DNA of 64,000 bases from Thermoanaerobaculia bacterium. GTDB lineage: Bacteria; Acidobacteriota; Thermoanaerobaculia; Multivoradales; UBA5704. The DNA lies in NCBI GenBank assembly GCA_036275055.1, contig DASUEN010000083.1, positions 19,187 through 83,186 on the forward strand, written 5' to 3'. The notes beneath the pieces were generated by a model. The model searched no databases and was not told the DNA's origin. It saw nothing but the letters and a program-made list of their open reading frames with translations. The position numbers and the translations under genes are program-made. Below, piece by piece: positions 9,701 to 28,538 of the stretch (position 1 is its first letter; every line of letters starts with the position of its first letter).

Positions 9701-10045
9701 GAGGACGGTGACCTGCTTGCGCTCCCCCTCAAGGGCGGATTTGGACTGGAGGACCTGGGCGGCGAGATGGGAGGGCGTATAGCTTTGGACTGGAGAAGCG
9801 AGGCGGGGTGCTTCAGGGGGCGGCGGAGGGGGGAGCGCCTCCGCCTTGGCCGCCCCGAGGGGGGAGCCGCACTCGCCGCAGAACTTGAAGCCGGGGAGGT
9901 TCTCAGTGCCGCACTGCGGGCAGAGGGCGGCCAGCTTCGCGCCGCACTGGCCGCAGAACTTCATGCCGGCGGGGTTGTCGAACTGGCAGTGTGGGCAATG
10001 CATGGGTTGTGGCGGTGGTTCGCAGGCCAGATTACCTTCACCCAC
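6683..10045 (-). CDS. Class III adenylate/guanylate cyclase fused to an AAA/STAND ATPase and TPR-like region, with N-terminal double zinc ribbon
   Basis: Zinc ribbons CPHCQF..CGQCG..CPQCG..CGECG. Cyclase core ERKQVTVLFCDLVGSTSLAE...FLGDGFMALFGAP...GINTGWVVVGG. P-loop AAEAGSGKSRL. Long helical-repeat C-terminus. The start is either GTG 10045 or ATG 10003 and is not resolved. Confidence 0.85.
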   Translation of the reverse strand: MGEGNLACEPPPQPMHCPHCQFDNPAGMKFCGQCGAKLAALCPQCGTENLPGFKFCGECGSPLGAAKAEALPPPPPPEAPRLASPVQSYTPSHLAAQVLQSKSALEGERKQVTVLFCDLVGSTSLAERLGPETMHLLLNRFFELALSEVHRYEGTINQFLGDGFMALFGAPIAHEDHARRAALAALGLQKLLAEHHAELGERGGVELRFRMGINTGWVVVGGIGDQLRRDYTAIGDTTNLAARLQQLAEPGAILVSEDTSRFLQGSARLEAIPPLQVKGKETPVRAFRLMGVGLLLQSEDAVLGSTARSPFVGRRREMAILEELRERAAAGEGQVVGIAAEAGSGKSRLVYEFRRRLWNRPVLHLAGRCLSYTSGVPYLPILYMLRNAWEIGEADDAAAVVAKVMAGLRRAEMEVAEALPYVLYLFGIREGTEALAELSPQALQTRTFRLLRQAILNESRRRLVVLEIEDLHWVDRTSEDFLSLLVEGLFAAHVLLIATYRSGYRPPWIEKSNATQISLARLTDAESEAVVRAVLRRAELPENLVAEVRGKAEGNPFFLEELARSLLEHPGVSVPDTIQGVVMARIDRLPDDHKRLLQTASVLGREFPLNLLAAVWEQVDNLPSLLSDLKRWEFLYEEPTAEEPRYLFKHALTQEAVYQTLLTGRRQALHTAAGQAFESLFAGRLEDVYDALAYHYSEAGEAGKAVSYLALFAAQAARRYAHAEAERALREALAHCERLPQTEADRRRMELVLLLAESLFPLARFPETLELFLAERDLLDRLQDSTLAGRYHFWLAHTYSYLGDQEAAAANARLSIEAARRSGDAITEGRAWYVLCRDAFWSGRFSEGIEHGRQAVDLLERSADRWWQGQAYWVAGFHHYVLGQFGEAFRRMEKAEAAWRALQDPRLDPSWSTGYFHASLGEYERGIEECKGGLERAQDPLNTAAALGFLGYAYLEKGDLPKATEALEGSVERLRRAGMKQLLGWFSAFLAEARLLSDRPDEARVLAREALAVTEEVRFRYGSGMAQRALGRIARAAGDREEAERWLGEAVESFKAIAAPFEVARTRLDLALAAGAGSNGAAWQLGEARRTFAELGLRVYVEKTDRLAGDLAPAKEETSK

Positions 10046-10185: not shown

Positions 10186-10230
10186 TATCTCCCGATGTGT
10201 GCAATAGCACGGCCTAATAACAGACAGTCA

Positions 10231-11075: not shown

Positions 11076-11244
11076 ACGCTTATGTTCCGGAACTCACCGG
11101 CAGCACTGCTCCGGGAAAGTCAGCGTCTCGCTTTAGCACCGGCCACTGACTAGCCCCATGCCGGGTTCGGGATGGATTTACTTTAGCCAAGCAGGGCCGC
11201 TGTGATCGCCCGCAGCGTTCCGGCAAGGTCAATCCTGAGAGGAA

Positions 11245-13821: not shown

Positions 13822-14436
13822 CTACGTCACCATAATCTTTTTCACCATTCTGCCGAACCGCTCCCCCGCCAGGTAGACGCCGTCGAACACGTTCGCGTCC
13901 AGCTCATCGGCGTCATATTCCTCCTCCTCACCGTCCACAACCACCCCTGTGCCAAGGTCGCGGTGCAGCTCCCGGACCGTCGCCCTTGGAGAGCGCGAAA
14001 ACCGTCGAGTCCTCCAGGGCTTTGACCGTGGCGGAGGGGGCCCGGGCGTCCACGAAGGACATCTCGTCCACGATCTCGCCGGCGTTGAGGCGGGCGAGCT
14101 CCCTCTCCGGTCCCCGGTGGGGCCGGAGGGAGACGGCCAGCCTTCCTTCCAGCAGGATGAAGACGGAGTCCACCGGCACGCCCTGCTCGATGAGGGCGCC
14201 TCCCGCGGGGACGAACCGCTTCTGGCCAGCGCGGAGCATCCACTCCCCTGCTCGGTGACCCGTCCTCCCTTGATGACGTAGATGCGGTCGGCGTTCTGGA
14301 TGGTGCTCAGGCGGTGGGCGATGACGATGCGTGTAGCCTTCAGGCGCTCCAGTTTGCGGCTGACGATCTCCTGGGTACGGTTGTCGAGGGCGCTCTCGTG
14401 GCCTCGTCGAAGAGAAGGATGCGCGGTCGGTGCACG
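13822..14436 (-). pseudogene. Decayed duplicate of the exporter operon 3' end (cNMP-binding protein plus C-terminus of the second ABC ATPase)
   Basis: Collinear nucleotide similarity to 20085..20895 with two internal deletions. Translated fragments: DGVYLAGERFGRMVKKIMVT, MLRAGQKRFVPAGGALIEQGVPVDSVFILLEGRLAVSLRP...LARLNAGEIVDEMSFVDARAPSATV, and NRTQEIVSRKLERLKATRIVIAHRLSTIQNADRIYVIKGGRVTEQG. The fragments lie in different frames. Confidence 0.75.
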
Positions 14437-14621
14437 CCGCTTAGAGAGGCACCACCCCCGCCAAGCGGAGGACGGGGCGGCCCCACAGCCGGCGCGCCTA
14501 ACAGGCCGTGCTACATGGCCATGTAGTTCCACTCCGGCGAGCCCGGCCCGCACCCCCGAGGAGGGTGTCCGCCCGAATCTGTCGAGGCGAAGAAGTCCCG
14601 ATTTAATTCTTTATGAAAAAT

Positions 14622-14667: not shown

Positions 14668-17487
14668 ATGACGATGGGTTTTTCTTTGATTACACGCTCC
14701 GACGACGCACTGGGCGAAGGCTTCCGGGAAGACTCGGCCTCTCCTGCGGGCCTGTCCGCCCCCCCGGTGGTCGTACGGATCGCGGGCCTCCCTGCACAGG
14801 CTCTCGAGCCCCTCACGAGCCCCTCCTGCGTCGCGCTGCTGCAAGCCCGCGAGCCTCTCAAGGAGGAGATCGGAGACGCCAGGCGATCGATGGCCGAGGC
14901 GATCGGCAACGCCCTTCCGAGGTTCGACGCTACGATCCGCGGCTTTTTGCTCACGATAAAAAGGAACTGCTTCAACGGTCGTGCCATCGAGCCGCTCCGC
15001 AGGAAAGCGGAGTGGGCCGAGCTTCTCCAGGTCTCGCCGGACCTGGCGGAGCGCATCGTGGCCCTCGAAGAGCAGCTCGACGAGAACGACCGTGCGCTCG
15101 CCACCCTTTACGAGAGCGAGCTCACTCGCGAACGGCGCCACGTCCTGACGCTGGCGGAGGATCGCCGTTTTCTCCGTGGCATTGCCCTGGGAAGACCCGG
15201 CCTGGTGGAGAAAATCCGCGCTCGGGCCCCTTCTCTCGCCGCTTCGGGATCTCTGAGAAGTCCGGAGAAGTGGGAACAGAGCCTCCTGCGTTTCGTGACC
15301 CGGGCCGCGGCGAAGCTGTCCGCCAACTCGACGCTCACCGCCTACGGTCTGGGGAGCATTCAAGACTCCCCGTCCCCGGTGGGCTTACGGTTCGCCGGCT
15401 CTCCTCAACGGGAGGTTTCCCTGGTGCGCGTCAACCGCCCGGAGCTCGAGCAGCTCCAGGCGCTCCTGCTGCGGCACCCGGCGGTGCGAGAGCGCGCTCT
15501 CGTCGCCTGGAACGACAGCCTCGAGGAGCTCGAGCCCGGCCAATATCGTTTCCTGCGCGATGGCCACTGGAAGCTCGAGCCCGGAGCGGAAGAATTTCAC
15601 TTCGTTCTGCCCGCGAGGGTCAAGGTGACGCTTTCCAACGCGGTGCTGGGCACTGCCCGAGAGGCCCTGCGAGTGTGTACGCTCCGCTACGACGCCCTCT
15701 TGGCGCTGCTGGAAGACCGGCACGGGATTTCGGCCGGCGAAACGACCGCTCCGCCGATTCGGAGTGCCCTCGACCAACTCGTCGATCTCGGGCTCCTCAT
15801 CCTCATGCCGCCCTGGCCGACTCACGAAGCTCGGTTGGAGCAGCGGATCGGACGGTTCCTTCGCGCCCTGCCCGGCGAGCCTACCCTGCGCGCGACGGCA
15901 GACGCCCTGGACGAGCTTCTGGCACTCGAAGCGGGCTTCGCTTCGGCTCCTCGGCCCGAGAGCTCGGTCGCCGCCATGGAAGACGCCTTCTCGCGGCTTC
16001 TCAACACGGTCGTCCATCTGGCCGGGCACGAGGGTCCTCTCGCCACCCGGGCACACTTCTTCGAAGACGTGCTCCTGGAAGCAGCAGTCAGCTCCGGCGA
16101 CGATCGGGGAATCTTCCAAATCGCGTCACAGATGGCTCAGGAGATCCTTCAGACCGCACGGCTGGTCTCGCGCTTTGCCGGCCTGTTCAACGTTCGCCAC
16201 GACGTCCTGCACACCCTGGCCGCTTGGTGGCGGGAGCATGAGCCGAGGCGGCGAGAGGTCCCTTTCACCGAGATTGCTCGCGGGTTCGCCCCTCTTTGGA
16301 AGCAGTTCTTTCAATTCCACAAGACCGCGAACGAGGATGCCCTCAATACCTTCGACCCCCTGCACACGGACTCGCTCGAAAGGCTGCGGGAGAGGCGGGC
16401 AACGCTTCTCGCCGAATCCCGGGAGTTGCTGAGCACCTCGCCAACGAAGGACTTCCTGTCGTCGCGACAGCTCGCGGAGATGGTGGAGCCTCTACCCCGC
16501 CGCTATGCCCCCCAACTGGGCACGTGCGTCTTCATCCAACCCGTGGATGCCGAGGGTAACTCTTGGGTGCTCAACCGCCTACACGAAGGCACGGGGCGGT
16601 ATCTGAGCCGCGTCACTCCGATCCTGGAAGGGCCTCGGCAGCAGCGCTTCCTCAACCACCTCATCGCGAGATCGGTGGTCGAGTTGGAGGGAGAGGAAGC
16701 GGATCTCCTCGAGGTCAAGTATCCGTGGAGCCACCTGGTGAGAGCTCACCCGCCTCAGGCGGCAAAGGTCTTGGACCTCCGGGGACTGCACCTCGGCCTG
16801 CCGCCAGAGCGGAGGGTCGGCCTCGGCGATCTCACGATCCAGGCGGATCTCGATTCCGAAACCTTCCGATTGATCGACCCTTCGGGGCGCCGCGTGCTTC
16901 CTGTCAGCCTGAGCACCTTGTCCGACGCCGGGCTCCCGAACCTCCTGCGCTTTCTTCTGGCGTTCGGACCGGGCGAGACCCGTGCCGTCTTTCCGCTCAA
17001 CTCCTGGGAGGGCGAGGAGGATTTCAGATCCTTCCACCGCTTGACCTGCGGCACGCTGGTCCTGCGCCGCCATCGTTGGACGATCGGTATCGAGAAGCTC
17101 CGCGGTGACCTGGAAGCTCTTTCCGGCTTGCGAGCTTACGTTGCCATCCACGATTGGCGCCATCGGCTGGGCCTGCCGGCGGTGGGCTTCTACTACGAGC
17201 TCTCGTACCAGGGGATTCTCAAGCCGCAGTACGTCGATTTCCGCTCGCCGTCGCTGTGCCGGCTTTTCGTCGCCAGCCTGCAAAAGATGGCAACCGGGCA
17301 CCTGACCCTCGAGGAAGCCCTGCCGTCGCCCGCCGACTTCCCCTTCGACGCTTCGATGAACCGCCGAGGCTTCGAGCTTTTGATCGATAGTTTGGCGATC
17401 CGTACCGTGAACGGAAATTGCTCCGCCTGGGTACCGGACCGCAACCGAGAGAGTCTCTCTCTCAGAAGGGAAGTACAACATGTCTAA
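14668..17487 (+). CDS. Lantibiotic dehydratase, N-terminal (glutamylation) part only: split LanB, 939 aa
   Basis: N-terminal PPVVVRIAGLPAQALEPL and C-terminal FYYELSYQGILKPQYVDFRSPSLCRLF resemble Lant_dehydr_N family proteins. The size matches thiopeptide-type split dehydratases. There is no elimination domain at the C-terminus. Confidence 0.7.
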   Translation: MTMGFSLITRSDDALGEGFREDSASPAGLSAPPVVVRIAGLPAQALEPLTSPSCVALLQAREPLKEEIGDARRSMAEAIGNALPRFDATIRGFLLTIKRNCFNGRAIEPLRRKAEWAELLQVSPDLAERIVALEEQLDENDRALATLYESELTRERRHVLTLAEDRRFLRGIALGRPGLVEKIRARAPSLAASGSLRSPEKWEQSLLRFVTRAAAKLSANSTLTAYGLGSIQDSPSPVGLRFAGSPQREVSLVRVNRPELEQLQALLLRHPAVRERALVAWNDSLEELEPGQYRFLRDGHWKLEPGAEEFHFVLPARVKVTLSNAVLGTAREALRVCTLRYDALLALLEDRHGISAGETTAPPIRSALDQLVDLGLLILMPPWPTHEARLEQRIGRFLRALPGEPTLRATADALDELLALEAGFASAPRPESSVAAMEDAFSRLLNTVVHLAGHEGPLATRAHFFEDVLLEAAVSSGDDRGIFQIASQMAQEILQTARLVSRFAGLFNVRHDVLHTLAAWWREHEPRRREVPFTEIARGFAPLWKQFFQFHKTANEDALNTFDPLHTDSLERLRERRATLLAESRELLSTSPTKDFLSSRQLAEMVEPLPRRYAPQLGTCVFIQPVDAEGNSWVLNRLHEGTGRYLSRVTPILEGPRQQRFLNHLIARSVVELEGEEADLLEVKYPWSHLVRAHPPQAAKVLDLRGLHLGLPPERRVGLGDLTIQADLDSETFRLIDPSGRRVLPVSLSTLSDAGLPNLLRFLLAFGPGETRAVFPLNSWEGEEDFRSFHRLTCGTLVLRRHRWTIGIEKLRGDLEALSGLRAYVAIHDWRHRLGLPAVGFYYELSYQGILKPQYVDFRSPSLCRLFVASLQKMATGHLTLEEALPSPADFPFDASMNRRGFELLIDSLAIRTVNGNCSAWVPDRNRESLSLRREVQHV

Positions 17488-17701
17488 GCCCAAGGATGCG
17501 AACCTGGAGATCGAGGCCCTTTCCGACGACGAGCTCGAGTCAGTCAGCGGAGGCAATACCACCACCAACTCGGGCGGCACCTGCACCACCAACGCGGGCG
17601 GCGTCTGCAGCACCGCTATCAACGGCGGCTGCACCACCAACACGGGTGGCACCTGCACCAACCTCCCAGCCCAACCCGCACAACAACTGAACGCCGACTG
17701 A
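17480..17701 (+). CDS. RiPP precursor, 73 aa, double-glycine leader plus Thr/Cys/Asn/Gly-rich core
   Basis: Leader MSKPKDANLEIEALSDDELESVSGG, then core NTTTNSGGTCTTNAGGVCSTAINGGCTTNTGGTCTNLPAQPAQQLNAD. The ATG overlaps the LanB-like stop by 8 nt. Confidence 0.75.
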   Translation: MSKPKDANLEIEALSDDELESVSGGNTTTNSGGTCTTNAGGVCSTAINGGCTTNTGGTCTNLPAQPAQQLNAD

Positions 17702-17715
17702 TGAATTGACCAGCC

Positions 17716-17733
17716 TGCCCTCGATCGTGAGGG
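17716..17733 (+). terminator. Weak hairpin just after the precursor gene (possible attenuator or RNA-stabilising structure)
   Basis: GCCCTC, loop GATCGT, GAGGGC, 15 nt after the stop. There is no U-tract, so this is not a strong terminator. Confidence 0.25.
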
Positions 17734-17766
17734 CGGGTTGGTCCCGTCCGCTAGAGAGGTTACGCG

Positions 17767-19011
17767 ATGAAGCATGACGTGAAGACTTTTGGCGATTTGA
17801 TTGCCCCTTTGTCTGCCGGCGACTTTTTCGCCAGCTACTGGGAGAAGGGGTTTTTGCATCTACAGAACGAGCCCGACCGGTTCTCCGGCTATTTTTCGCT
17901 GCGAGACGTCGATGGCTGGTTGACGTCGACACGGGGCAGACTCTGCATCACCGCCCCCGAGGGCGACGAAGCGCGCACCGATTGGTATCAACCCCAGGAA
18001 ATCAGCATGAGTATCGCCTATGCAGCCTTTGCAAGAGGCTGCTCGCTGGTATTGGATCGCATGGAGGACCGGCCCTCCCTCCAGGGTCTCGCCAAGGCCC
18101 TGGGAAGGGATTTCCATGCCGACGTCGGCATGGAGGCATTTTTGACCCCCCAGGGGGCGAAAACGTTTCCGACCCACGCCGCCGGACACGACCTTCTCAT
18201 CCTGCAGTTGGAAGGAGAGAAGATCTGGCAGCTTCATGAGTTCTCCCTGCTGCAGCTCAACCCCTCGGAGAAGACGAACTTCAAGTTCCCCCTGGAATGG
18301 TACGGACGCACCAAGACACCGGTCATTGCCGAAGTCTGCCTCAAGCCTGGCGACGTGCTCTACATTCCGCGCGGGATGCCCTACCAGGCCGTCGCCCAAA
18401 ACGGGGCTTGCCTTCACCTGTACGTCACCATCACTCCCTTGTTCTGGATGGATTTCTTGAAGGTCGCCGCCGAGTGCGCCGCCCTCCATTCCCAGGACGT
18501 GCGGAGAGCGCTGCCGCCTGGCTTCGTCGAGAGCCAAGAGATCTGTGAGCAGATGCGGAGCACCTTTCAGGACGTGATGAAGGTGTTTCAGGAAGTGACT
18601 TCCTTCGACGAGGTTCTCGCCGCGGTCAAGCGCAACCGTGTAAAGCGCCAAGACTTCCCACAGGATGGCCACTTCACCCAACTCCTGGAGCCCGCAGGGC
18701 TCACCGTCGATTCCGAGGTCGAGCGACGCCGAAACGTCCTCTGTTTCGTCGAAGAGATCGTCGACGTCGATCGGAACACCAAGAGCGCCATCTTCTTCGG
18801 CAAAGAACGGGTCACCGGCCCGCGGCATCTGCGCCGGGCGCTGGAGTTCATTCGGGATCAAGCCCGGTTCCGGGTGTCCGAGGTCCCCGGGCTCGACGAG
18901 AAGAGCCAGTTGACCCTGGTGCGCCGCCTGATCACCGAAGGACTGCTGCGGCGGGCCCTCGCGGCGGAGAGGATCGCTCAGCCGACGCCGGCGGTGCCGG
19001 TTTCAAGCTGA
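17767..19011 (+). CDS. Cupin-4 / JmjC ribosomal-oxygenase (ROX, YcfD/NO66-like) family protein with atypical metal-site residues
   Basis: ROX hallmarks FFASYWEKGFLHL, FLTPQGAKTFPTHAAGHDLLILQLEGEKIWQL, LKPGDVLYIPRGMPYQAVA, and a C-terminal winged-helix-like tail. The expected HxD...H positions read H-A-A ... Y. Confidence 0.75.
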   Translation: MKHDVKTFGDLIAPLSAGDFFASYWEKGFLHLQNEPDRFSGYFSLRDVDGWLTSTRGRLCITAPEGDEARTDWYQPQEISMSIAYAAFARGCSLVLDRMEDRPSLQGLAKALGRDFHADVGMEAFLTPQGAKTFPTHAAGHDLLILQLEGEKIWQLHEFSLLQLNPSEKTNFKFPLEWYGRTKTPVIAEVCLKPGDVLYIPRGMPYQAVAQNGACLHLYVTITPLFWMDFLKVAAECAALHSQDVRRALPPGFVESQEICEQMRSTFQDVMKVFQEVTSFDEVLAAVKRNRVKRQDFPQDGHFTQLLEPAGLTVDSEVERRRNVLCFVEEIVDVDRNTKSAIFFGKERVTGPRHLRRALEFIRDQARFRVSEVPGLDEKSQLTLVRRLITEGLLRRALAAERIAQPTPAVPVSS

Positions 19012-20088
19012 TGGCGCCTCACCTCTCTTCGGCGGCAACTCGACGAACGCGGAGAGCGCCGGTGGAAGCAGGGCGCGGAGGGCCTCTGCCGGTTCCTCGG
19101 AAAACCCTCGCGGCCCCCTTTCCCCGATCCAGGAGAGGTCTTCCTCGCCGCGGCTCAGCACCTCCTGGAGGGTCACTGTCAGGAGGCGGCTCAGGTAGAG
19201 CTCTTCCGCGTTGCTGAGCCCGAGACGGCTTGCCGTCATATGGAGGTGGCTCCCCCCCGTCCTCGCACGGGCGACGCGGTCGCCGGTTCCTTTCGCTTCC
19301 GAGAGACGGCCAGAGCCCGCCGCGAGGAGCTCCGCCGCGGACGCTGGAGGCTCGTTCTCCGCCTGCACGGAACGTACCCTGGCCAAACTTTCGCGGAAGA
19401 GCCGCAGGAAAAGCTCCCTTTGGGATACTGCGACCCGGTCGGCCTTCTCCACGACTTTCGACGCCCCTTCGCTCCACGAATCTACGCCATACCTCAGCAG
19501 ATCGAGTAATTCGGCTTCGTCAGCCGCGAAACCGAGGGCTTGCTGGAGCAAAAGGAGGAACGCTTGCGCGAGTAGAACCGAACGCGACGCGTCCCCATGC
19601 TTCGCCAGAAGCTCGATGGCCGCCACGCTCGATAGCGTGAAGACATCGAGAGAAGAGCGAAACAGGCCCGGGCCTCCGTAGCGTTCGACCTCGGGGCGAA
19701 ACGGTACCACCTGCAACGAGTTGTCCGGATAGATTGAGGTGTCGATCTCGTGGGGGTCGCCCGCCAGGATGTACTCGTTCGATCGCTGGATCACCTCTTC
19801 AGCCAGCGACTTTGTCGAAGGGGTCAGGTCGAAAAAGTCTCGTGCCAATCGTTGAACCTCTGCGAGCACGTGGTCTCTGAAGCCAGGACGAGCTCTCAGC
19901 CGCAGACGGACGTGAGGCCCACCCAGTGCATAGCGCACGAAGAAGAAAGCCTCGATCTGATCAGCCTTTACGAGAGAGATCACCACCGGATGGACAACGC
20001 CTCTCACGACGCGATCCGGGTCCTCGTGATAGTAGAGATGGCAGGAGATCCAGCGCTCCTGGACCTCGTCGAAGGGCTGGTCGGTCAC
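19003..20088 (-). CDS. LanB C-terminal (SpaB_C, thiopeptide-type) glutamate-elimination domain protein
   Basis: WISCHLYYHED...IEAFFFVRYALGGPHVRLRLRARPG is the signature opening of SpaB_C/thiopeptide-type bacteriocin biosynthesis domains. The GTG start overlaps the upstream stop (GTGA). Confidence 0.75.
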   Translation of the reverse strand: MTDQPFDEVQERWISCHLYYHEDPDRVVRGVVHPVVISLVKADQIEAFFFVRYALGGPHVRLRLRARPGFRDHVLAEVQRLARDFFDLTPSTKSLAEEVIQRSNEYILAGDPHEIDTSIYPDNSLQVVPFRPEVERYGGPGLFRSSLDVFTLSSVAAIELLAKHGDASRSVLLAQAFLLLLQQALGFAADEAELLDLLRYGVDSWSEGASKVVEKADRVAVSQRELFLRLFRESLARVRSVQAENEPPASAAELLAAGSGRLSEAKGTGDRVARARTGGSHLHMTASRLGLSNAEELYLSRLLTVTLQEVLSRGEEDLSWIGERGPRGFSEEPAEALRALLPPALSAFVELPPKRGEAPSA

Positions 20089-20627
20089 GTCACCATCACC
20101 CGCTTCACCATCCGGTCGAACCGCTCCCCTGCCAGGTAGACGCCGTCGAGCACGTTCGAGTCCAGCTCGTCGTCGTCCTCCTCGTCCTCACCCATGGCCG
20201 CCCCGGTGCCAAGGTCGCGGTGACGCTCGCGGACGGTGGTGGAGAGGTAGATCGCCAAAGCCCGGTAGAACCGCGCCGCGAAGCCCTGGTCCGCCGCCAG
20301 CTTGGCGTTGAGGGTGGCCTTGGCGAGGGCGAAGACAGTGGAGTCCTCGGCGGCGCGGACGGTGGCGGAGGGGGGCCGGGCGTCGACGAAGGACATTTCG
20401 CCTACGATCTCGCCGGCGTTGAGGCGGGCGAGCTCCCTTTCCGCTCCCCGCCGGGGGCGGAGGGAGACGGCGAGCCTTCCTTCCAGCAGGATGAAGACGG
20501 AGTCGACCGGCACCCCCTGCTCAATGAGGATGCCGCCGGCCGGGACGAACCGCTTCTGGCCGGCGCGGAGCATCCACTCGACGTCATCGTCGTTGAGCTG
20601 GCCGAAGAGGAAGAGGACTTTGCGCAT
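20085..20627 (-). CDS. Stand-alone cyclic nucleotide-binding domain protein
   Basis: cNMP-binding beta-barrel pattern GGILIEQGVPVDSVFILLEGRLAV...AGEIVGEMSFVDARPPSATVRA. Acidic linker, then a short C-terminal tail. Confidence 0.8.
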   Translation of the reverse strand: MRKVLFLFGQLNDDDVEWMLRAGQKRFVPAGGILIEQGVPVDSVFILLEGRLAVSLRPRRGAERELARLNAGEIVGEMSFVDARPPSATVRAAEDSTVFALAKATLNAKLAADQGFAARFYRALAIYLSTTVRERHRDLGTGAAMGEDEEDDDELDSNVLDGVYLAGERFDRMVKRVMVT

Positions 20628-20637
20628 GTTTGACTCC

Positions 20638-23532
20638 TCAGGCGATCTGCCTTTCGGCGAGACGGGCGAAGGGACCGTTGCTCCGCAGCAGCTCCTGGAA
20701 GGTGCCCTGCTCAGCGACCCTGCCGCCTTCGATGACGTAGATGCGGTCGGCGTTCTGGATGGTGCTCAGGCGGTGGGCGATGACGATCCGCGTCGCTTTC
20801 AGGCTCTCCAGGCTGTGGCTGACGATCTCCTGGGTGCGGTTGTCGAGGGCGCTGGTGGCCTCGTCGAAGAGGAGGATGCGCGGCCGGTGGACGATGGCGC
20901 GGGCGATCAGGATGCGCTGCTTCTGGCCGCCGGAGAAAGTCTCGGCCCCCTCGCTCACCACGGTGTGCATCCCCATGGGCATGGCCTTGACGTCATCCTC
21001 CAGCCCGGCGGCCCGCGCCGCCTCCCAGGCGTCGTCGATCCCCAAGTTGGCGCTCCCTACGATATTGGAGAAGATGCTCCCCGCCATAGGGCGGCCGCTT
21101 TGGAGGACGACACCGATCTGCCGCCGCACGGACTGCACGGCGAGCCCCGCCAGGTCCTGGCCGTCGAAGTAGATGGAGCCCGCAGTCGGCTTCTCGAAGC
21201 CGAGGATGAGGCGCAGGCAGGTGGACTTGCCCGCGCCCGAGGGCCCCACCAGGGCGATGAACTCGCCGGGGCCGGCGCGGAAGGAAACGTCGTCCAGCAC
21301 TAGGGGCGTCTCCTCGTGATAGCGGAAGGAGACGTGGCTGAACTCGATCTCCCCTGAAAGCTCGCCCGGCTCGGACTTCGACTCGTCCACCTCGGGCACG
21401 GTCTCCAGGATCGGTCGCAGGCGCTCATAGACTGGCACCGCGGCGAGCACGCTCGAGAAGACCGAGACCACAGACAGCGCCGCCGACAGGAACTGGCCGA
21501 AAGCGGCGTTGAAGGCCAGAAACTCGCCCAGGGGAAGGGACTCGTTCGAAACGAAACCCACCATGGCGAAGACGCCGAGCGAGGTGAGGACGCCGTAGAC
21601 CGCGTTGAACGCCGTCTGCGCGTTGGCGGCCCGCTGAGCCGCGAGGGTGCGGCGGCGCTGCTCGGCGAAACGCTCGGCCCAGCGGGCATAGGCCCGGGAC
21701 TCGGCGCCCGCCACCCGCAGCTTGGCGATGCCGTGAATGAGGCCGAAGAGGAGGCTCGCGATGCGCCCTTGGACCTCCAGGATGGCCCGCTGATGGCGGA
21801 GTTGGAGCCAGACGAGGACGGCCGTCACCACCACCAGGATCAACACCATGCCGGTGGCGAGAAGAGCGAGCCGCCAACTGTAGTAATAGAGCAGCGCGAA
21901 GCTGAAAACCGAGAAGACCGTCGCCAGGGCGAGGGAGAGGACATTGCCCGTGAGCAGGTCGCGGATGGTGTCGATCCCCAGTGCGCGGTTGGCCAGGTCG
22001 CCCACGGTGAAGCGCCGGAAGAAAGTGACGGGCAGGGCCAGCAGCCGGTCCCACACCGCGGACTGGACGGCGCCGTCCACCTTTCCCCCGAGGCGCAGGA
22101 CGGCGAGGCTGCGGATCACCTGGAAGATCGCTCCCGCCACCGAGGTGACGATCAGGGCCAGGGTGATCTGGAGCAGTTGGCTGCGGTCCGCCCCGGGGAT
22201 GACGCTGCCGAAGACCTGCCCCGTGAGGACCGGCACCAGGAGCCCCAGGAGCCCGCCGGCCAGCCCCATGAGAACGATCGTGGCAAGGTCGCGGCGGCGG
22301 CCCGCGAAGGCCATGCGCGCGAGGTCGCCCATTCCCACCGGCCGCGCCGGTAGGGGCGGATAGAGCATGTGGGCGTCGCCGCTCAAGGTCTCGGAGACGG
22401 CTTCGTCGACGCTCACCCGCGTCCCCGCCGCCGGATCGGCCAGCACGTAGCTCTGGGGCGAGGTAGGGAGGAGGGCGACGGGGCGGCGGGCCTTAGGGTC
22501 GTCCGGCGGGATCTGGAAGGCGACCAGAGGACCGTTGTCGCGGCGCCACCAGTCGTCGCGCAAGATCACCCGGCGGGAGCGGATCCGCGACGCGTTGCAA
22601 ATCTGCACCAGGAGGTCGCCCTGCTTGCCGGCGGGTTGCCCCTCCGGCCGGTCGCGGATCTCGATCCCCTGGGCCTCCCCCACCAGCCGGACGGCGGCGA
22701 GGATGGGAGAGGACTCCGCCGCCAGGGCGGCACCGGCCCGCGAAGACGCTTCGAGGACGGAGGCGAGCCGGGCGTAGGCACCGCGCAGCACGGAGCGGTC
22801 GAGGTCCCGCCTGCGCCCCAGGCGCTCACGTTCGAGCCCCTCCCCTTTCTCGCGGTCATAGGCAACGGCTTCGAGGCAGAGCTCGTGAAAGCGGGCGATC
22901 CCTGCCCAGAGCGCCCCATCCCGCAGCGCCTCGGCCGTACCGCAGGAGGTGAGCCGGGCCTCGCCGGCCGCCACCAGCCAGACGTCCTCGGGCACGGGAA
23001 AGAGCTCGCCCCCCTCGATCCCCAGCCGCTCGTCTCCCAGCAGGTACGTGCGCCCCTCCAGGTGCCGTACCCAGACGACGCCATCCCGGCTCCGGGCCAG
23101 CCGCCCCGGCTCCAGGCGGGTCTCCTCACCGGGGCGCAAACTCTCGAAGTTGCGCGGGAACGCGGGCCGTACCAGGCCGCCGCCGAGCCCCGCGAGCCAG
23201 GCGTCGAACTGGCCGGCCAGGCCGGGGATGTCAGCCGCCAGCAGCCGGCGCAGGCGCGTGCCGGGCGCTCCTACGGCGAGGAGCCCCAGGCCGTGGCCGC
23301 TTGCCGCCGCGGGCTCGAAGCCGCAAAGGATGCCGTCGGCGGAGACCGTGGAGAGATGGATGCGGGGGCCGGTTTCGCCTTGGGGAACGGCGAATACCTC
23401 GGCCATCCCCTCTTCGACGAGCCAGATCTCGCCGCCGGCGTCGAGGGGCAAGGGCGCGTTGCTGGCAATGGGAATGTCTGCGGGGGCGGGCTCTCCCGCC
23501 AGGACCGGCTGCGGCTCGGATGGGCTCGCCAT
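20638..23532 (-). CDS. NHLP/Nif11-type bacteriocin export ABC transporter, permease/ATPase subunit with N-terminal cNMP-binding-like domains (no peptidase)
   Basis: Walker A GPSGAGKST, signature FSGGQKQR, Walker B ILLFDEATSALD. Six-helix TMD. An N-terminal region of about 300 aa has beta-barrel-like repeats (IWLVEEGMAEVFAV...). Start taken at ATG 23532 (MASPSEPQP), 4 nt after the upstream stop. Confidence 0.85.
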   Translation of the reverse strand: MASPSEPQPVLAGEPAPADIPIASNAPLPLDAGGEIWLVEEGMAEVFAVPQGETGPRIHLSTVSADGILCGFEPAAASGHGLGLLAVGAPGTRLRRLLAADIPGLAGQFDAWLAGLGGGLVRPAFPRNFESLRPGEETRLEPGRLARSRDGVVWVRHLEGRTYLLGDERLGIEGGELFPVPEDVWLVAAGEARLTSCGTAEALRDGALWAGIARFHELCLEAVAYDREKGEGLERERLGRRRDLDRSVLRGAYARLASVLEASSRAGAALAAESSPILAAVRLVGEAQGIEIRDRPEGQPAGKQGDLLVQICNASRIRSRRVILRDDWWRRDNGPLVAFQIPPDDPKARRPVALLPTSPQSYVLADPAAGTRVSVDEAVSETLSGDAHMLYPPLPARPVGMGDLARMAFAGRRRDLATIVLMGLAGGLLGLLVPVLTGQVFGSVIPGADRSQLLQITLALIVTSVAGAIFQVIRSLAVLRLGGKVDGAVQSAVWDRLLALPVTFFRRFTVGDLANRALGIDTIRDLLTGNVLSLALATVFSVFSFALLYYYSWRLALLATGMVLILVVVTAVLVWLQLRHQRAILEVQGRIASLLFGLIHGIAKLRVAGAESRAYARWAERFAEQRRRTLAAQRAANAQTAFNAVYGVLTSLGVFAMVGFVSNESLPLGEFLAFNAAFGQFLSAALSVVSVFSSVLAAVPVYERLRPILETVPEVDESKSEPGELSGEIEFSHVSFRYHEETPLVLDDVSFRAGPGEFIALVGPSGAGKSTCLRLILGFEKPTAGSIYFDGQDLAGLAVQSVRRQIGVVLQSGRPMAGSIFSNIVGSANLGIDDAWEAARAAGLEDDVKAMPMGMHTVVSEGAETFSGGQKQRILIARAIVHRPRILLFDEATSALDNRTQEIVSHSLESLKATRIVIAHRLSTIQNADRIYVIEGGRVAEQGTFQELLRSNGPFARLAERQIA

Positions 23533-23536
23533 GGCC

Positions 23537-25753
23537 TCATTCAGTGCTGATAAGCCGGGAGTAGGGGCCTTCGACGACCCGAAGCTGGTCGTGGGTGCCG
23601 CGCTGCACCACCTTGCCGTGGTCGAGGACGAGGATCTCGTCCGCATCGCGAATGGTGCTCAGGCGGTGGGCGATGAGGAGGCAGGTGCAGCCGCGGCGGC
23701 GCAGGCGCTCGTCGATCTGGCTCTCGGTGGAGGGGTCGAGGGCGCTCGTCGCCTCGTCGAGGACGAGGATCGAGGGCCTCCCTACCAGGGCGCGGGCGAT
23801 CTCCAGGCGCTGGCGCTGGCCGCCGCTCCAGTTGGCCCCTCCCTCCTCGACCGGGCTGTCGTAGCCCCCCGGGCGGGCCGCCACGTCCTCGTGGATGGAA
23901 GCGTCCTTGGCCGCGGCCACCACTTCGGGCAGGGGAACGGTGGAGTCCCAGAGGGTCAGGTTCTCCCGCACGGTCCCCTCGAAGAGGAAGACGTTCTGAT
24001 CGACCGTGGCGAGCGAGCTCGCCAGCACCGCGGGCGGGATCGCCGAGCGCGGCTGGCCGTCGAAAAGGATCTCCCCCTCCCACGGCTGGTAGAGGCCGGT
24101 GACCAGGCGGGCGAGCGTCGACTTGCCGCTTCCCGAGCCCCCCACCAGGGCGACGCGGGAGCCGGGCTTGAGCGTCAGGCAAAGCCCCTCGACGAGCGGC
24201 GGATCGAGCCGGCTGTAACCGAAGGAGACTTGGCGCAGCTCCAGGCTGCCGGCGAGCTTGACGGCCTCTCCCTCCGCCGGCATCTCGTCGTCGAGCCCGG
24301 CCGCGGCGCCGGGGTCGATGCGGTAGCGCAGGACGTCGTCCAGCCGGTTCATGTCCCCCTCGACCGTTTGCAGCTTGCCGCCGAGGCTCACCAGCCGGGT
24401 GACCGGAGCGATGAAGGCGGCCATCAGGAGCTGGTAGGCCACCAGGCCGCCCACGGAGAGCGAACCGCTCATCACCCGCACACCGCCGATCCCCAGGATC
24501 AGCGCCGAGTTGATCGCCGACAGCAGGCCCGGCCCGGCGTCGAGAAGTTGGGTGTAGCGTTCGAGCTCCTGCCGGCCGTTGACCACCTTGGCCTGGTAGC
24601 CGGCCCAACGGGAGAAGAGGTCGGACTCACCGCCCGTGGCCTTCAAGGTCTCGATGGTCTGCAAGCCGCCGATGGCCGTGCCCAGCAGCTTCCCCTGGTC
24701 CTGCACGAGGCGGCGGTTGCCGTCCACCCGCCGGCGCGAGACGTACTTCAAAGCCGCCACGTTGAGCGACACCACGGCGATTCCCACCAGGGTCAGCACC
24801 ACGTCGTACTGGAAGAGGAGCACGGCGAAGAAGGCGATCATCACGGCGCCCAAGGCGTTGGTCGCCAGATCGCGTGACAGGAGCTGGGCCACGCGGTCGT
24901 TGATCGCCACCCGCGAGCTGACGTCCCCCGCGAAGCGCTGGCTGAAGAACTCCGAGGGAAGGCGCAGCACGTGCCAGAGGAACCGGGACGAGCCCCCTAC
25001 CGCCATACGGGTCTCCAGACGCAGGAGATAGCTCTGCTGCAACCAGGTGAGGGCCCCCAGCAGCACGGCGGCGGCGCCCATGGCGAGGAGCAGCGGCGGC
25101 AGCCACTCGCGATGCCCTTCCAAGAGGACGCTATCGAGGAAGACCTTGGAGAAGACCGGCACCACCATCCCCGGAATGGCGAGCGCCAGGCCGGCGAGCA
25201 CCACGAAGACCAGGGCAGCCTTGGTGCCGGCCAGGCGGCTCTTCAACGCCGGGACGAGGCTCGGCGGGTCGCCCCGCTTCGCGAACTCGGGACCAGGCGA
25301 AAACGTCAGCACGACACCGGTGAAGGCCTGGTCCAGCTCTTCCTCGGTGACCGTCCGCGGCCCGGTGCCGGGGTCGTTGAGATAGACCCGCCCTTTGCGG
25401 ATACCCTCCAATACTACGAAGTGGTTGAAGTTCCAGTGCAGGATCATGGGGGGATGGACGGCACGCAGCGACTGGGGCTCCCGCTTGTAGCCCTTGGCTT
25501 CGAGGCCGTAGGTGCGGGCGGCCTTGACCATGTTGCTCGCCTTGCTGCCGTCGCGCGAGACGCCGCAGGCCACCCGCAGCTCTTCGAGCGGCACCCAGCG
25601 GCCATAGTGGGCGAGGACGATGGCGAGCGCCGCCGCGCCGCACTCGACGGCCTCCATCTGCAGGACGGTGGGGGTCCGCACCCGCGCCTTGGGCCGCTCT
25701 GCCGGCGGGCGCTGCCGGCGGAATTTCTCCTGGAGGCTGGCCAGGAACGGCAT
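23537..25753 (-). CDS. NHLP/Nif11-type bacteriocin export ABC transporter with N-terminal C39 peptidase domain
   Basis: C39 catalytic-Cys region VLQMEAVECGAAALAIVLAHYG plus HWNFNHFVVLEG. Walker A GGSGSGKST, signature WSGGQRQR, Walker B ILVLDEATSALD. Confidence 0.9.
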   Translation of the reverse strand: MPFLASLQEKFRRQRPPAERPKARVRTPTVLQMEAVECGAAALAIVLAHYGRWVPLEELRVACGVSRDGSKASNMVKAARTYGLEAKGYKREPQSLRAVHPPMILHWNFNHFVVLEGIRKGRVYLNDPGTGPRTVTEEELDQAFTGVVLTFSPGPEFAKRGDPPSLVPALKSRLAGTKAALVFVVLAGLALAIPGMVVPVFSKVFLDSVLLEGHREWLPPLLLAMGAAAVLLGALTWLQQSYLLRLETRMAVGGSSRFLWHVLRLPSEFFSQRFAGDVSSRVAINDRVAQLLSRDLATNALGAVMIAFFAVLLFQYDVVLTLVGIAVVSLNVAALKYVSRRRVDGNRRLVQDQGKLLGTAIGGLQTIETLKATGGESDLFSRWAGYQAKVVNGRQELERYTQLLDAGPGLLSAINSALILGIGGVRVMSGSLSVGGLVAYQLLMAAFIAPVTRLVSLGGKLQTVEGDMNRLDDVLRYRIDPGAAAGLDDEMPAEGEAVKLAGSLELRQVSFGYSRLDPPLVEGLCLTLKPGSRVALVGGSGSGKSTLARLVTGLYQPWEGEILFDGQPRSAIPPAVLASSLATVDQNVFLFEGTVRENLTLWDSTVPLPEVVAAAKDASIHEDVAARPGGYDSPVEEGGANWSGGQRQRLEIARALVGRPSILVLDEATSALDPSTESQIDERLRRRGCTCLLIAHRLSTIRDADEILVLDHGKVVQRGTHDQLRVVEGPYSRLISTE

Positions 25754-27036
25754 CAGATCCCCAGCTTCTCCCGCAGCGTGGGGATGACGAGGGCGATAGG
25801 GCGGTCCTGCTTCACCACCACGTCGCCCGCCGCCAGGGTGCCGCTGCTGATCTTGAGGCTCGGCCCCCGCGAGGAGGACCAGCGGTATCCCGTGGGGGTT
25901 TTGACGTCGCGGCGCAAGGCGACGTTGATCTGGATGGGCGGCCCCTCGGTCATCAGCTTGGTGACCAACGCCTCGTTGCCCAGCAGGCGCGTCATACCGC
26001 GGGCCGAGGAAGGGAACTCCGCCACCCAGACCACCCGTCCCAGGATGGAGCCGAACTCCTCCCGTTTGACGGTGCTGGGCGTCACCTGCACCGCCATCCC
26101 CGGCTGTACCTGCTTCCCCGCCGAGGCCGGGACGAAGAGCACGGCCATCAGGTCCTCGGAGAGCACCTCGACGGAGAGCACCGGGGAGCCGGGCGTCACC
26201 ACGTTGCCGCGGTTGGCCAGGACCTCCAGCACGCGCCCGGCGAAGGGGGAGAGGACGTTGACGTTCTCTCCGAGCTGGGCACTGAGCTCACGGGTCTGGA
26301 GGTCCAGGTCGCGCAGCGTGGTCTGCCGCGCCTCGAGCTGCTGGTCGAGCGCTTGGTCGGCCTCCAGGCGCTTGAGCTCCAGGCCGCTCAGGTCGAGCTT
26401 CTGCTGGGCGAGCTGGTCGCGCTTGGCGTTCAGGTCCTGCTGGGTGGTGAGGTAGGTCTGCTTGGTGATCAGGCCGTCGTCGAGCAGGCTCTTGCCGGCG
26501 GCCACCCGCTCCTGGAGGAGGGCCACGTCCTTCTGCAGGGCGTCGATGCTCCGCTCGAGATTGGCCCGCTGCAGGGCGAGGTCCCGGGCCCGCAGCCGCT
26601 TCTGCTCGTCCGAGGAACGTTGGAGAGACAGGTACTCCGATTGCAGGGCCGTCTGCTTGGCTTTGTTGTCCCGGATCTGGCGGATCAGCGAGTCCTGGCG
26701 GATCCTCGCCACGGGCTGCCCCTTGGCGATGACGTCCCCGACGCTCACCAGCACCTCCGCCACTTGGCCGCTGGCAGGGGAGACGAGGTCGGAAACTCCC
26801 CCCTGGCGCAGCAGGATCCCCTCGCCGTGCGCCTGGGTGGGGATCGTCCCCCAGATCCCCCAGGCGAGGGCGGCCAGGAGCAGGGCGCCGAGGCCGCTCA
26901 GCGAAAGCCAGCCACGCGGATCGGTAACCTGCACCAGTTGATCGAGCTGCTCGGGAGAGGAGAGCCTCTCCAGTGCCACTTTGCGGAAGATCACGGCCTG
27001 CGCTCCTCCACGACGGGGGGCAGGGTGATGAGCCAC
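25753..27036 (-). CDS. HlyD-family periplasmic adaptor of the bacteriocin exporter
   Basis: FRKVALERLSSPEQLDQL opening, single TM, long coiled-coil (QSEYLSLQRSSDEQKRL...), beta-barrel C-terminus. One-base TGATG junction with the ABC gene. Confidence 0.85.
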   Translation of the reverse strand: MAHHPAPRRGGAQAVIFRKVALERLSSPEQLDQLVQVTDPRGWLSLSGLGALLLAALAWGIWGTIPTQAHGEGILLRQGGVSDLVSPASGQVAEVLVSVGDVIAKGQPVARIRQDSLIRQIRDNKAKQTALQSEYLSLQRSSDEQKRLRARDLALQRANLERSIDALQKDVALLQERVAAGKSLLDDGLITKQTYLTTQQDLNAKRDQLAQQKLDLSGLELKRLEADQALDQQLEARQTTLRDLDLQTRELSAQLGENVNVLSPFAGRVLEVLANRGNVVTPGSPVLSVEVLSEDLMAVLFVPASAGKQVQPGMAVQVTPSTVKREEFGSILGRVVWVAEFPSSARGMTRLLGNEALVTKLMTEGPPIQINVALRRDVKTPTGYRWSSSRGPSLKISSGTLAAGDVVVKQDRPIALVIPTLREKLGI

Positions 27037-28538
27037 GAGACCTCGACGGCGCCCACCTCTCCATTGTCCCCGACGAGGGTGCCCGTCTCAAAGCGAAGCT
27101 GCAAAAGGGCGATCGCGAGCGCGAGTTGGGCCGAGACCTCGGTCTGCCGCGCGGCGGTCAGGCGGTCGCGCTGGTTGATGACGTCGAGGAGGGTCGAGGT
27201 GCCCCCGCGCAGCTTCTTCTCCTCGTTGACCACCGCCCGCTCGAAGAGGCGCTCGGCCTCCCGCGCCTTCTGGAGCTGCCGCGCGTCCCGCCCCACGGCG
27301 TCCAGAGCCGACGGCACGTCGGCGCCGATCCCCTTGGCGATGAGGTCTACGGCCAGGGCGTTCTGCCGCAGGGCGGCGTCCGCCTGCAACAGCTCTCCCT
27401 TCGCCCGGCGGTTCCCCACCGGCAAGGTCAGGTTGAGGGCGAGCGTGGCGCTCGCGCCCGGGACGTTGCGGTAGAGTGGGGAAAAGAAGCTCCCGGGGTC
27501 GGACCCCACCGTGAGCCCCGAGTAGCCGGGAGTGAAGAGAAGGTCGAGCTGCGGCTCCAGGGCGTTCTCGGCGGCACGGCGAAGGATCTCGGCCGACGCC
27601 TGGCGCTCCCGGGCCGCCCGCAGGTCCGCTCTGCCGCGCAGAGCGGCGGCGACGAACGGCCCGGCCGCTTCGGCCGGCGGCACCGCTTCCGGCAAAAGGG
27701 CCGGGAAGGGATCGGCAGGCAGCGGCAGCCGGTCGATCTCCGCGCTGTCCAGGCCGATCTCCCGCCCCAGGTCGCGCCGCGCGGTGAAGAGCTGGCGCTC
27801 GCCGCCGATCCGCGCCGACTCCTGGGCCGCCAGGTTGGCTTCGAGCTGCACCACCTCGGCCGCCGGCACCTGGTCGGCCGCGATCAGCTTGCGGGTGTTC
27901 TCCAGCAGCTCGCGCGAGCCGGCCTCGCTCGCCGCGAGCACCTCGAGGTTGTGCACCGCGGCTGCGACCGTCCAGTATTGGGAGACCACGGTGACGAGCC
28001 GTTGCGAGACGAGGTGACGCACGTCGAGCCCGGCCGCCGCGAGCTCCCGTTGCGCCGCGAGCTCGCCGGCCGCCGTGGCCGCCCGGCCGCGCCCGCGCAA
28101 CAACGGCTGGCGGATGAGGAAGGTGACGGTCCCCGCATTGGCGGCACTGGAGCCGGCGGTCACGTCCTCGGTGCGCACGACGCCGGCTTGCGGCTCGATG
28201 GACAGCCCGGTACGGAACTGCTGGGTCAACCCCACCGAGCTCTGGAGCGTCCGCGTCTCCTGGCGGGAGCCGGGCGCCACGAGCGTCCGGTCGTCCACCT
28301 CGCTCAGCCCGGAGGTAACGACCGGATCGAACTGGCTGGAGGCGATGGCGAGCGATCCCCGCGCGCTGTCGAGCCGCGCCTGCTGCACGGCGAGGTTGGG
28401 ATCGCGCGCGAGCATCGTCTGCACGGCTTCCAGCAGCTTGAGGCCGGGGCCGGAGGTGGATTCCTCAGCCCCGGTGCCCTGCGGGATCGCCAGCAGGACG
28501 ATGGCGAGGTAAAACCGGACGCTGCGCATTAGAATCAA
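26991..28538 (-). CDS. TolC-family outer membrane efflux protein
   Basis: Signal peptide, then two tandem OEP-type helical repeats (LLEAVQTMLARDPNL..., LEVLAASEAGSRELLENTRKL...). First gene of the exporter operon. Confidence 0.8.
   Translation of the reverse strand: MILMRSVRFYLAIVLLAIPQGTGAEESTSGPGLKLLEAVQTMLARDPNLAVQQARLDSARGSLAIASSQFDPVVTSGLSEVDDRTLVAPGSRQETRTLQSSVGLTQQFRTGLSIEPQAGVVRTEDVTAGSSAANAGTVTFLIRQPLLRGRGRAATAAGELAAQRELAAAGLDVRHLVSQRLVTVVSQYWTVAAAVHNLEVLAASEAGSRELLENTRKLIAADQVPAAEVVQLEANLAAQESARIGGERQLFTARRDLGREIGLDSAEIDRLPLPADPFPALLPEAVPPAEAAGPFVAAALRGRADLRAARERQASAEILRRAAENALEPQLDLLFTPGYSGLTVGSDPGSFFSPLYRNVPGASATLALNLTLPVGNRRAKGELLQADAALRQNALAVDLIAKGIGADVPSALDAVGRDARQLQKAREAERLFERAVVNEEKKLRGGTSTLLDVINQRDRLTAARQTEVSAQLALAIALLQLRFETGTLVGDNGEVGAVEVSWLITLPPVVEERRP

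Follow-up and report, generated by a model that had tools for sequence, protein, structure and literature searches.

We analyzed a 64,000-nucleotide stretch of the genome of a Thermoanaerobaculia bacterium (Acidobacteriota), corresponding to positions 19,187 to 83,186 of contig DASUEN010000083.1 (assembly GCA_036275055.1) and referred to below as the window. It carries a gene cluster for a peptide made on the ribosome and modified after translation (RiPP), in which a precursor with a double-glycine (GG) leader is encoded together with a split, LanB-like dehydratase and a set of export genes. Next to the precursor gene, and between it and the gene for the LanB elimination protein, lies the gene studied here, which encodes P0001, a protein of the JmjC_2 family with the fold of the ribosomal oxygenases (ROX). 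P0001 lacks the HxD/E...H triad of active JmjC oxygenases dependent on Fe(II) and 2-oxoglutarate (2OG). Coordinates of all features are collected in Table 1.

The reading frame of P0001 is open, begins with ATG and is preceded, 7 nucleotides (nt) upstream of the start, by AGAGAGG. The protein matches the Pfam family JmjC_2 (PF08007) with 70.1 bits over residues 118-223 (cut-off 22, E 1.6e-19). In a phmmer search of all PDB chains, the top match is human NO66 (E 7e-20), a template to which P0001 is 20% identical, followed by MINA53, YxbC and YcfD. An AlphaFold2 (AF2) model computed from a 137-sequence alignment has a mean predicted local distance difference test (pLDDT) score of 95.0 and a predicted template modeling (pTM) score of 0.90. 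Foldseek matches full-length P0001 to NO66 and MINA53 in the PDB (E ~3e-26, template modeling (TM) score 0.69, ~440 columns), then to YcfD and YxbC, with FIH, PHF2 and JMJD5 ranking far lower. These matches bear out the ROX/JmjC cupin fold that an earlier model-made reading of the DNA, the original prediction, had proposed. According to the model, P0001 has the three-domain ROX build, namely a JmjC barrel, a helical dimerization domain and a C-terminal winged helix, an architecture described in PMC6182338; Pfam searches with the C-terminal 109 and 188 residues gave no match. An antisense open reading frame (ORF) of 333 amino acids (aa) at 17860-18861 on the minus strand overlaps the JmjC gene and was treated as a high-G+C artifact; all homology signal lies on the plus strand. 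The gene is present in one copy in its own genome, which rules out a second, active JmjC partner encoded there.

In the phmmer alignment, the NO66 segment F-A-P-H-Y-D pairs with F-P-T-H137-A138-A139 of P0001, and P-R-G-F-I-H-Q-A pairs with P-R-G-M-P-Y206-Q-A. The first histidine ligand is kept, alanine stands at the aspartate position and tyrosine at the distal histidine position. Each replacement is a single nucleotide away from the canonical residue (GCC of A139 from the Asp codon GAC, TAC of Y206 from the His codon CAC). A sequencing error or a pseudogene was ruled out by three observations: the nearest homolog P0002, 86% identical to P0001, also reads H-x-A...Y, the reading frame is intact, and the ratio of nonsynonymous to synonymous substitution rates (dN/dS) is below 1.

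A word-indexed search gave 142 homologs; the 120 listed among them were aligned with MAFFT and form the family alignment used below. An exhaustive HMMER search returned 214 representatives at E<=1e-30, mostly ~400 aa long and matching end to end. Canonical relatives among the 120 reach 73% identity to P0001, and because such close members anchor the alignment, beyond the distant NO66 template, the ligand columns are fixed. H137, A139 and Y206 fall on the HxD...H columns in both the NO66 and the family alignment, just as the original prediction had read them by eye. Columns 137/139/206 are H/D/H in 71 sequences, which we call canonical. The remaining combinations, called degenerate, are Y/A/H (21 sequences), H/A/Y (10), F/A/H (8), Y/C/H (5), H/A/H (2), H/A/F (2) and F/A/Y (1). 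A conventional triad was not found elsewhere in P0001: H117-A-D119, its only other HxD motif, was rejected as an alternative, since canonical members also have it and the degenerate clade does not conserve it. The idea that a nearby G-H-D motif might substitute for the lost ligands did not stand. H141 is present in 69/71 and D142 in 71/71 canonical members, so the motif is not compensatory; moreover, H141 varies within the degenerate clade, and P0002 has G-Q-D.

Nine columns are invariant or nearly so among the 71 canonical members (N123, Y125, T127, H137, D139, K152, H206, T219 and S221). From this invariance and from the NO66 alignment, in which K152 pairs with a lysine of NO66 and N/Y/T123-127 with N-V-Y-L-T, they are presumed to form the Fe/2OG pocket. 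The residues of P0001 at these columns are E, F, T, H, A, K, Y, Y and T; it keeps T127, H137 and K152, and thereby two of the six presumed 2OG columns (N123, Y125, T127, K152, T219, S221). Mean pairwise identity at the nine columns is 1.00 for canonical members versus 0.43 for the degenerate clade, in which the canonical-invariant positions R75, S93, N97, G121, H141 and A210 are relaxed as well. In the family alignment, the degenerate clade has gained no conserved column of His, Asp, Glu or Cys. Its specific conserved residues are Q106, A139, V186, V190 and F343, and those of the sub-clade of the window are G57, S82, G140, N165, P166, F343 and E347. The side chains of the nine pocket residues sum to 1358 cubic angstroms in P0001 versus 1215 in canonical members, a crude hint that the pocket may be filled. 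From its residues we infer that P0001 has lost activity; it is very probably not a canonical Fe/2OG oxygenase.

The history of these losses was examined on a maximum-likelihood tree of 126 full-length sequences, including 50 non-canonical ones (49 of the 120 and one added). All 50 form a single clade nested within the canonical sequences, with a Shimodaira-Hasegawa-like approximate likelihood ratio test (SH-aLRT) support of 100, and support is 99 after removal of five pocket-bearing segments from the alignment. On the tree, column 139 has only two changes, a single D-to-A event followed by A to C within one sub-clade. For column 137 the tree requires at least 6 changes and for column 206 at least 5-6, and the new residue in these two columns is Tyr or Phe every time. 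The parsimonious ancestor of the clade reads HxA...H, a form found today in P0003 and P0028. By this reconstruction, Asp139 was lost once and first, and His137 or His206 was replaced repeatedly afterwards. Seven amino acids lie one nucleotide step from His; the exclusively aromatic replacements in ~11 independent events therefore suggest that the former pocket is constrained by packing or structure. The degenerate form makes up 49 distinct 90%-identity clusters in the 120-homolog set, those listed being full or near-full length, and its divergence extends down to ~45% identity. P0001 is no one-off: the degenerate clade to which it belongs is monophyletic and branches from within active-looking orthologs of the same cluster type.

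A comparable loss is seen in tandem fusions of ~820 aa that consist of two JmjC_2/ROX modules (the metagenome proteins P0124 and P0139). In their N-terminal half, both the HxD...H site and the pocket are canonical; in their C-terminal half, which is fully degenerate, the first His is replaced by E/R, the Asp by I/S and the distal His by R/Q. The independent origin of a dead JmjC half in these fusions lends support to the idea of a structural value of catalytically silent ROX modules.

Selection on the gene was assessed by dN/dS for codon-aligned pairs (NG86), with dS of 0.5-2, which is near saturation and makes the values approximate. The ratios are 0.11-0.33 within the degenerate clade and 0.07-0.19 for canonical pairs; the gene of the window gives 0.16 against that of locus L047 and 0.17 against that of L032. 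The JmjC ORFs are intact at the examined loci, with no frameshifts or stops. The degenerate clade is under purifying selection, its ratios being clearly below 1. Its pattern of conservation differs from that of canonical members: mean pairwise identity is highest in the canonical barrel (0.71, versus 0.68 for the winged helix and 0.66 for the helical domain), whereas in the degenerate clade the winged helix leads (0.63), followed by the helical domain (0.59) and the barrel (0.525). Conservation has moved from the catalytic barrel to the winged-helix and dimerization domains. P0001 combines the features by which a pseudoenzyme is recognized, i.e., lost catalytic residues, an intact gene and purifying selection, and it is highly probable that the protein has a selected function.

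Table 1. Features of the RiPP gene cluster and of the JmjC gene (positions in the window).
Feature	Position	Strand	Remarks
Zn-ribbon / adenylate-cyclase / AAA_16 / TPR regulator	6683..10045	-	flanks the cassette also in L047, L050 and L054
Remote LanB-glutamylation-like (dehydratase N-terminal) protein	14668..17487	+	939 aa
Precursor peptide with double-Gly leader	17480..17701	+	73 aa; weak NCBIfam match to GG-leader bacteriocins
Perfect 15-bp stem-loop between precursor stop and JmjC start	17708..17743	+	-33.9 kcal/mol, z = -4.2, no U-tract
JmjC_2/ROX-fold gene (P0001)	17767..19011	+	414 aa; triad positions H137-x-A139...Y206
N-terminal region and double-stranded beta-helix barrel of P0001	17767..18441	+	residues 1-225; presumed former Fe/2OG pocket E123, F125, T127, H137, A139, K152, Y206, Y219, T221
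Codons of H137-A138-A139 (HxD position)	18175..18183	+	CAC-GCC-GCC
Codon of Y206 (distal-His position)	18382..18384	+	TAC
Helical (dimerization-type) domain of P0001	18442..18702	+	residues 226-312; from model secondary structure and NO66/MINA53 fold match
C-terminal winged-helix domain of P0001	18703..18960	+	residues 313-398; best-conserved domain within the degenerate clade
Stand-alone LanB C-terminal (elimination-type) protein	19003..20088	-	361 aa, convergent; Pfam Lant_dehydr_C 123.5 bits; TIGR03891
Bacteriocin-transport-associated protein binding cyclic nucleoside monophosphate (cNMP)	20085..20627	-	TIGR03896 160.5 bits, just below cut-off 161.05
NHLP-type bacteriocin export ABC permease/ATPase (ABC2)	20638..23646	-	TIGR03797, 938 bits
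NHLP-type C39-peptidase ABC exporter (ABC1), GG-leader-cleaving	23537..25753	-	Peptidase_C39, ABC_membrane, ABC_tran
HlyD-family membrane-fusion protein	25753..27036	-	
Outer-membrane efflux protein (OEP/TolC-like)	26991..28538	-	

The gene order of the cluster is shared by the Thermoanaerobaculia metagenome-assembled genome L002, by eight species-representative genomes of the same class and by many metagenome contigs. The position of the JmjC gene in this cluster type does not differ between canonical and degenerate forms; in every close relative, it lies between the precursor and LanB elimination genes. The 939-aa protein has no Pfam or NCBIfam match, even at E<=1; its only match, over the first ~215 residues, is the goadsporin biosynthetic protein 9jhq in the PDB (E 8e-5, or 1.4e-7 with a profile), and its gene is syntenic with the JmjC gene in nine or more loci. 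The stem-loop ahead of the JmjC gene is probably an intercistronic attenuator or an mRNA-stabilizing element, as often found after lanA-type genes. LanC is absent from the contig of the window, and all 16 LANC_like matches of the genome lie elsewhere, many of them inside ~1000-1100-aa (LanM-like) frames; the organism is rich in lanthipeptide systems.

Several further observations concern the surroundings of the cluster and its relatives. The regulator and the LanB-like gene, direct neighbors in relatives such as L047, are separated in the window by an inserted low-G+C island at 10046-13821 (~50% versus ~68-70%), which encodes a SPASM protein (TIGR04193) and a grasp-with-spasm ATP-grasp protein (TIGR04192). 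Just left of the cassette, ORF fragments at 13822-14553 on the minus strand are second copies of two pieces of the cluster, the N-terminus of the cNMP-binding protein and the C-terminal end of the ABC exporter; as judged from these pieces, the segment is a decayed duplicate of the 20085-20900 junction. In the locus L066 of the same genus (G337:C43:180500-200400), the same exporter accompanies a different split-LanB cassette with the core LDGAGAGIGIARDGCSCDNTTSSCTG, and the exporter locus seems to host exchangeable cassettes. The canonical cluster of L050 / L051 (ENA contigs) may be a disrupted or rearranged variant: its LanB-like gene is called at only 565-626 aa and followed by small reverse ORFs, and an extra 346-aa gene lies between the Lant_dehydr_C and cNMP genes. 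Finally, the canonical homolog P0021, 66% identical to P0001, is encoded in L046 (JGI contig Ga0620886_0000094) among housekeeping-type genes (for cysteine synthase, an epimerase and RNase T), with no RiPP cluster; the RiPP JmjC enzymes may derive from, or exchange with, a stand-alone hydroxylase.

Orthologous precursors occupy the same position in those relatives where one was found. The leader of the window precursor ends with …LSDDELESVSGG and the core begins with NTTTNSGGTCTTNAGGVCSTAINGGCTTNTGGTCTN…; the leader motif E-I-E-x-L-S-D-D-[DE]-L-E-S-[VA]-S-G-G is near-identical across all clusters. The core of the window is a Cys-periodic repeat of 7-8 residues rich in Gly, Ser, Thr and Asn. 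In canonical clusters the cores consist of N-S-G-[ST]-G-[ST]-C repeats, or of N-N-A-T-T-G-C and S-N-A-A-N-A-C-C motifs, while those of degenerate clusters are looser (x-T-[ST]-x-G-G-x-C). Asn occurs within seven residues before the Cys motif in 50/60 motifs from 29 canonical-cluster cores versus 19/54 motifs from 13 degenerate-cluster cores (per-core Mann-Whitney p = 3e-5, uncorrected for shared ancestry), and two degenerate-cluster cores have no Asn at all. FIH-type JmjC enzymes are known to hydroxylate Asn. The difference between the cores fits a scenario, correlative in nature, in which Asn was the ancestral hydroxylation target and the constraint on it was relaxed after the loss of activity. 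Additional GG-leader peptides with short Trp/Pro-rich cores (such as DDNWPPA, WDGTTPPNPNGGG and DDAWPPPPPPPNP) are encoded near the exporter in L032, L035, L037, L041, L066 and L067 and belong to another cassette type.

The reading that we favor, with a probability of roughly 60%, is that P0001 is a pseudo-oxygenase kept for a non-catalytic role in binding or as a scaffold. A scaffold or peptide-binding function was one of the options named by the original prediction, and it agrees best with the coordinated loss of the presumed 2OG residues, the purifying selection and the shift of constraint. The ancestor would have been an active Fe(II)/2OG hydroxylase tailoring the Cys-periodic peptide with GG leader that a split-LanB RiPP cluster produces. 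At the origin of the degenerate clade, Ala would have taken the place of the carboxylate ligand Asp139, and the pocket would have ceased to be maintained; His137 or His206 would then have changed repeatedly to Tyr or Phe, and the presumed 2OG contacts Asn123, Tyr125, Lys152, Thr219 and Ser221 would have drifted (to E, F, K, Y and T in P0001, with a bulkier pocket in total). A canonical Fe(II)/2OG center could presumably not assemble in P0001, given that the Lys and a single His are all that is left and that the pocket residues have, taken together, gained bulk. P0001 would thus bind Fe(II) and 2OG no longer in the canonical way and hydroxylate no peptide, its gene being kept by selection.

The protein itself is correctly folded and probably dimeric. 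Its retained role could be to bind the precursor, the conserved leader being held by the winged-helix domain in the manner of a RiPP recognition element (RRE), and/or to associate with the exporter or the split LanB proteins in a complex; P0001 might present the precursor to the split LanB, shield it, or bridge it to the exporter. A leader-binding role is favored because the leader is near-identical, the winged helix is the best-conserved domain, and F343 and E347 are newly fixed on the winged-helix sheet. The winged helix of JmjC_2 proteins has been described as RRE-like, with bacterial homologs in RiPP-like contexts (PMC12710340), and both the fold and this literature suggest an RRE-like nature for the domain of P0001. 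The interaction between winged helix and leader is what we infer from these similarities.

Several points weigh against a pseudo-oxygenase. The near-saturated dS makes the dN/dS values approximate, the filled pocket is a crude hint drawn solely from summed side-chain volumes, and the binding partner and binding site of P0001 are conjectural. P0001 retains K152 and T127 and gains a pocket carboxylate, E123, and its precursor core keeps Asn before all four Cys. Furthermore, the distant split-LanB cassettes of G181, G329 and G337 have no JmjC gene, and the cassette of G337 shares exporter genes that are 83-89% identical. The JmjC protein is an accessory, tailoring-type component of one peptide family and not a general dehydratase partner; the dehydratase does not generally require it, so that the retention of a dead tailoring enzyme is hard to account for.

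Some of these points could also be read as traces of an unconventional metalloenzyme, in which H137, Y206 as tyrosinate, E123 and perhaps H217 would form a metal site through which the core is modified, oxidatively or in some other metal-dependent way. In 21/49 degenerate members the invariant Asn has given way to Glu (E123), H217 is nearly invariant in the family, and the retained K152 and T127, together with a core that has Asn before every Cys, would suit such an enzyme; PHF2, which has Tyr at the distal-His position, still binds metal. Such a site would, however, be peculiar to a few sequences and is not conserved even among 73-86% identical relatives. Relatives of 73-75% identity have Phe at 206 (P0006 and P0007) or Phe/Tyr at 137, and the clade as a whole does not conserve E123, K152 or Y219, in line with the 43% identity at the pocket columns and with the lack of newly conserved ligand-type residues. 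We regard an unusual metal site as unlikely. It is harder still to reconcile P0001 with a peptide halogenase of the HxA/G...H type, despite the Ala at the carboxylate position and the HxA...H sequence of the inferred clade ancestor, P0003 and P0028: P0001 lacks the distal His, and two residues of the presumed 2OG pocket, N123 and Y125, are gone throughout the clade, its HxA...H members included. We know of no JmjC-type halogenase, and the doubts that the original prediction had voiced about this activity on account of the distal His are thereby reinforced to the point where it appears extremely improbable.

Alternatively, the barrel might now serve a metal-independent catalytic function on the dehydrated peptide, e.g., in directing or catalyzing thioether ring closure between dehydroalanine or dehydrobutyrine (Dha/Dhb) and the periodic Cys residues in a pathway without LanC. 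The absence of a LanC-like gene from the window and contig, the adjacency of the JmjC gene to the precursor in all close relatives, the persistent purifying selection and the exclusively aromatic replacements are compatible with this. The clusters with canonical hydroxylases, however, also have no LanC, so the missing cyclase is unlinked to the degeneration; in addition, conservation within the clade is lowest at the residues lining the pocket, the opposite of what a new active site predicts, and no clade-specific residue of catalytic type is found. A new catalytic function is accordingly improbable. The gene could also be a functionless relic, a decaying tailoring gene carried along in its operon, given that its catalytic residues are lost, its barrel evolves faster than in canonical orthologs and related cassettes manage without JmjC. 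Yet a relic would hardly be expected to persist in 49 distinct 90%-identity clusters diverging to ~45% identity, with dN/dS of 0.11-0.33, ORFs free of frameshifts and stops, a highly confident predicted fold and non-random replacements by Y or F only, and we consider decay without function very unlikely. The pseudo-oxygenase with a binding or scaffold role therefore remains our preferred explanation.

In the literature searched, we found no account of a JmjC/ROX protein that has lost catalysis and is kept in a bacterial natural-product cluster, and no description of the split-LanB/JmjC cluster family. Pseudoenzymes are well documented in eukaryotic signaling and chromatin biology. The present family offers a clean case, in that active-looking and apparently dead orthologs share one location within one type of cluster, the tree reveals in which order the events took place (Asp first, then both His to Tyr or Phe repeatedly), the precursors appear to have responded (Asn before Cys is no longer held), and canonical/degenerate pairs are easy to compare experimentally. 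For genome mining, it follows that a JmjC_2 match in a RiPP cluster does not equal a +16 Da hydroxylation unless the ligand columns are checked. The cluster family as a whole, with its remote split LanB, its lack of a cyclase, its Cys-periodic Gly/Ser/Thr/Asn core and its NHLP-type export, has no characterized product. It can be speculated, as a long shot, that the degenerate ROX-fold protein has taken on a new, metal-independent task on the dehydrated peptide, as ring-directing chaperone or cyclase of a lanthipeptide-like pathway without LanC, or as an obligatory leader-binding adaptor passing the precursor to the split LanB; if true, this would document how a bacterial oxygenase became a biosynthetic component without redox function.

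Among known systems, the Fe/2OG halogenases (SyrB2, WelO5, BesD) have Ala or Gly in place of the carboxylate ligand, keep both His and full 2OG binding, and lie outside the JmjC/ROX subfamily. P0001 resembles them in the residue at the carboxylate position and differs in that its distal His is Tyr. With respect to the cluster, goadsporin (GodF/GodG), thiopeptides and pinensin-type class I lanthipeptides likewise combine separate glutamylation-like and elimination-like proteins with a leader-bearing peptide. In contrast to these split-LanB systems, the N-terminal protein of the window is too remote for Pfam, the cluster is without LanC, YcaO and pyridine synthase, and the core is a Cys-periodic Gly/Ser/Thr/Asn repeat.

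The best sequence and fold matches of P0001 are NO66/RIOX1, MINA53/RIOX2 and YcfD/RoxA (JmjC_2, PF08007), with which it has the three-domain build in common. P0001 keeps their first His and, as K152, a Lys that aligns with one of NO66, whereas the Asp ligand is replaced by Ala and the distal His by Tyr; relative to canonical family members, the pocket Asn, Tyr, Thr and Ser are also replaced. Unlike the genes of ribosomal oxygenases, its gene adjoins a peptide precursor and has no ribosome-related context, which argues against P0001 being a ribosomal oxygenase in the strict sense.

The catalytically doubtful or inactive JmjC proteins JARID2 and PHF2 are known from eukaryotes. In bacteria, JmjC hydroxylases have been published from RiPP clusters, namely CzlI of curacozole (PMC11575548), BipG/BpmG of biphenomycin (PMC12707348) and PbsQ (PMC12257519), so the original prediction went too far in calling the mere presence of a ROX-fold protein in a RiPP cassette unusual. 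Like P0001, these JmjC/cupin proteins are encoded beside the precursor as tailoring components, and the canonical orthologs of P0001 probably work as they do. They differ from P0001 in their intact 2-His-1-Asp site and demonstrated hydroxylase activity, and none is reported with a split LanB. A parallel in terms of function is Epe1, which retains the JmjC fold with altered metal ligands and acts non-enzymatically, by binding (PMC7192584, PMC6624913). P0001 is similar in its fold and altered ligands; proteins of the Epe1 type, however, belong to eukaryotic chromatin, whereas P0001 is bacterial, is encoded in a biosynthetic cluster and comes from a lineage whose stepwise decay can be traced on the tree.

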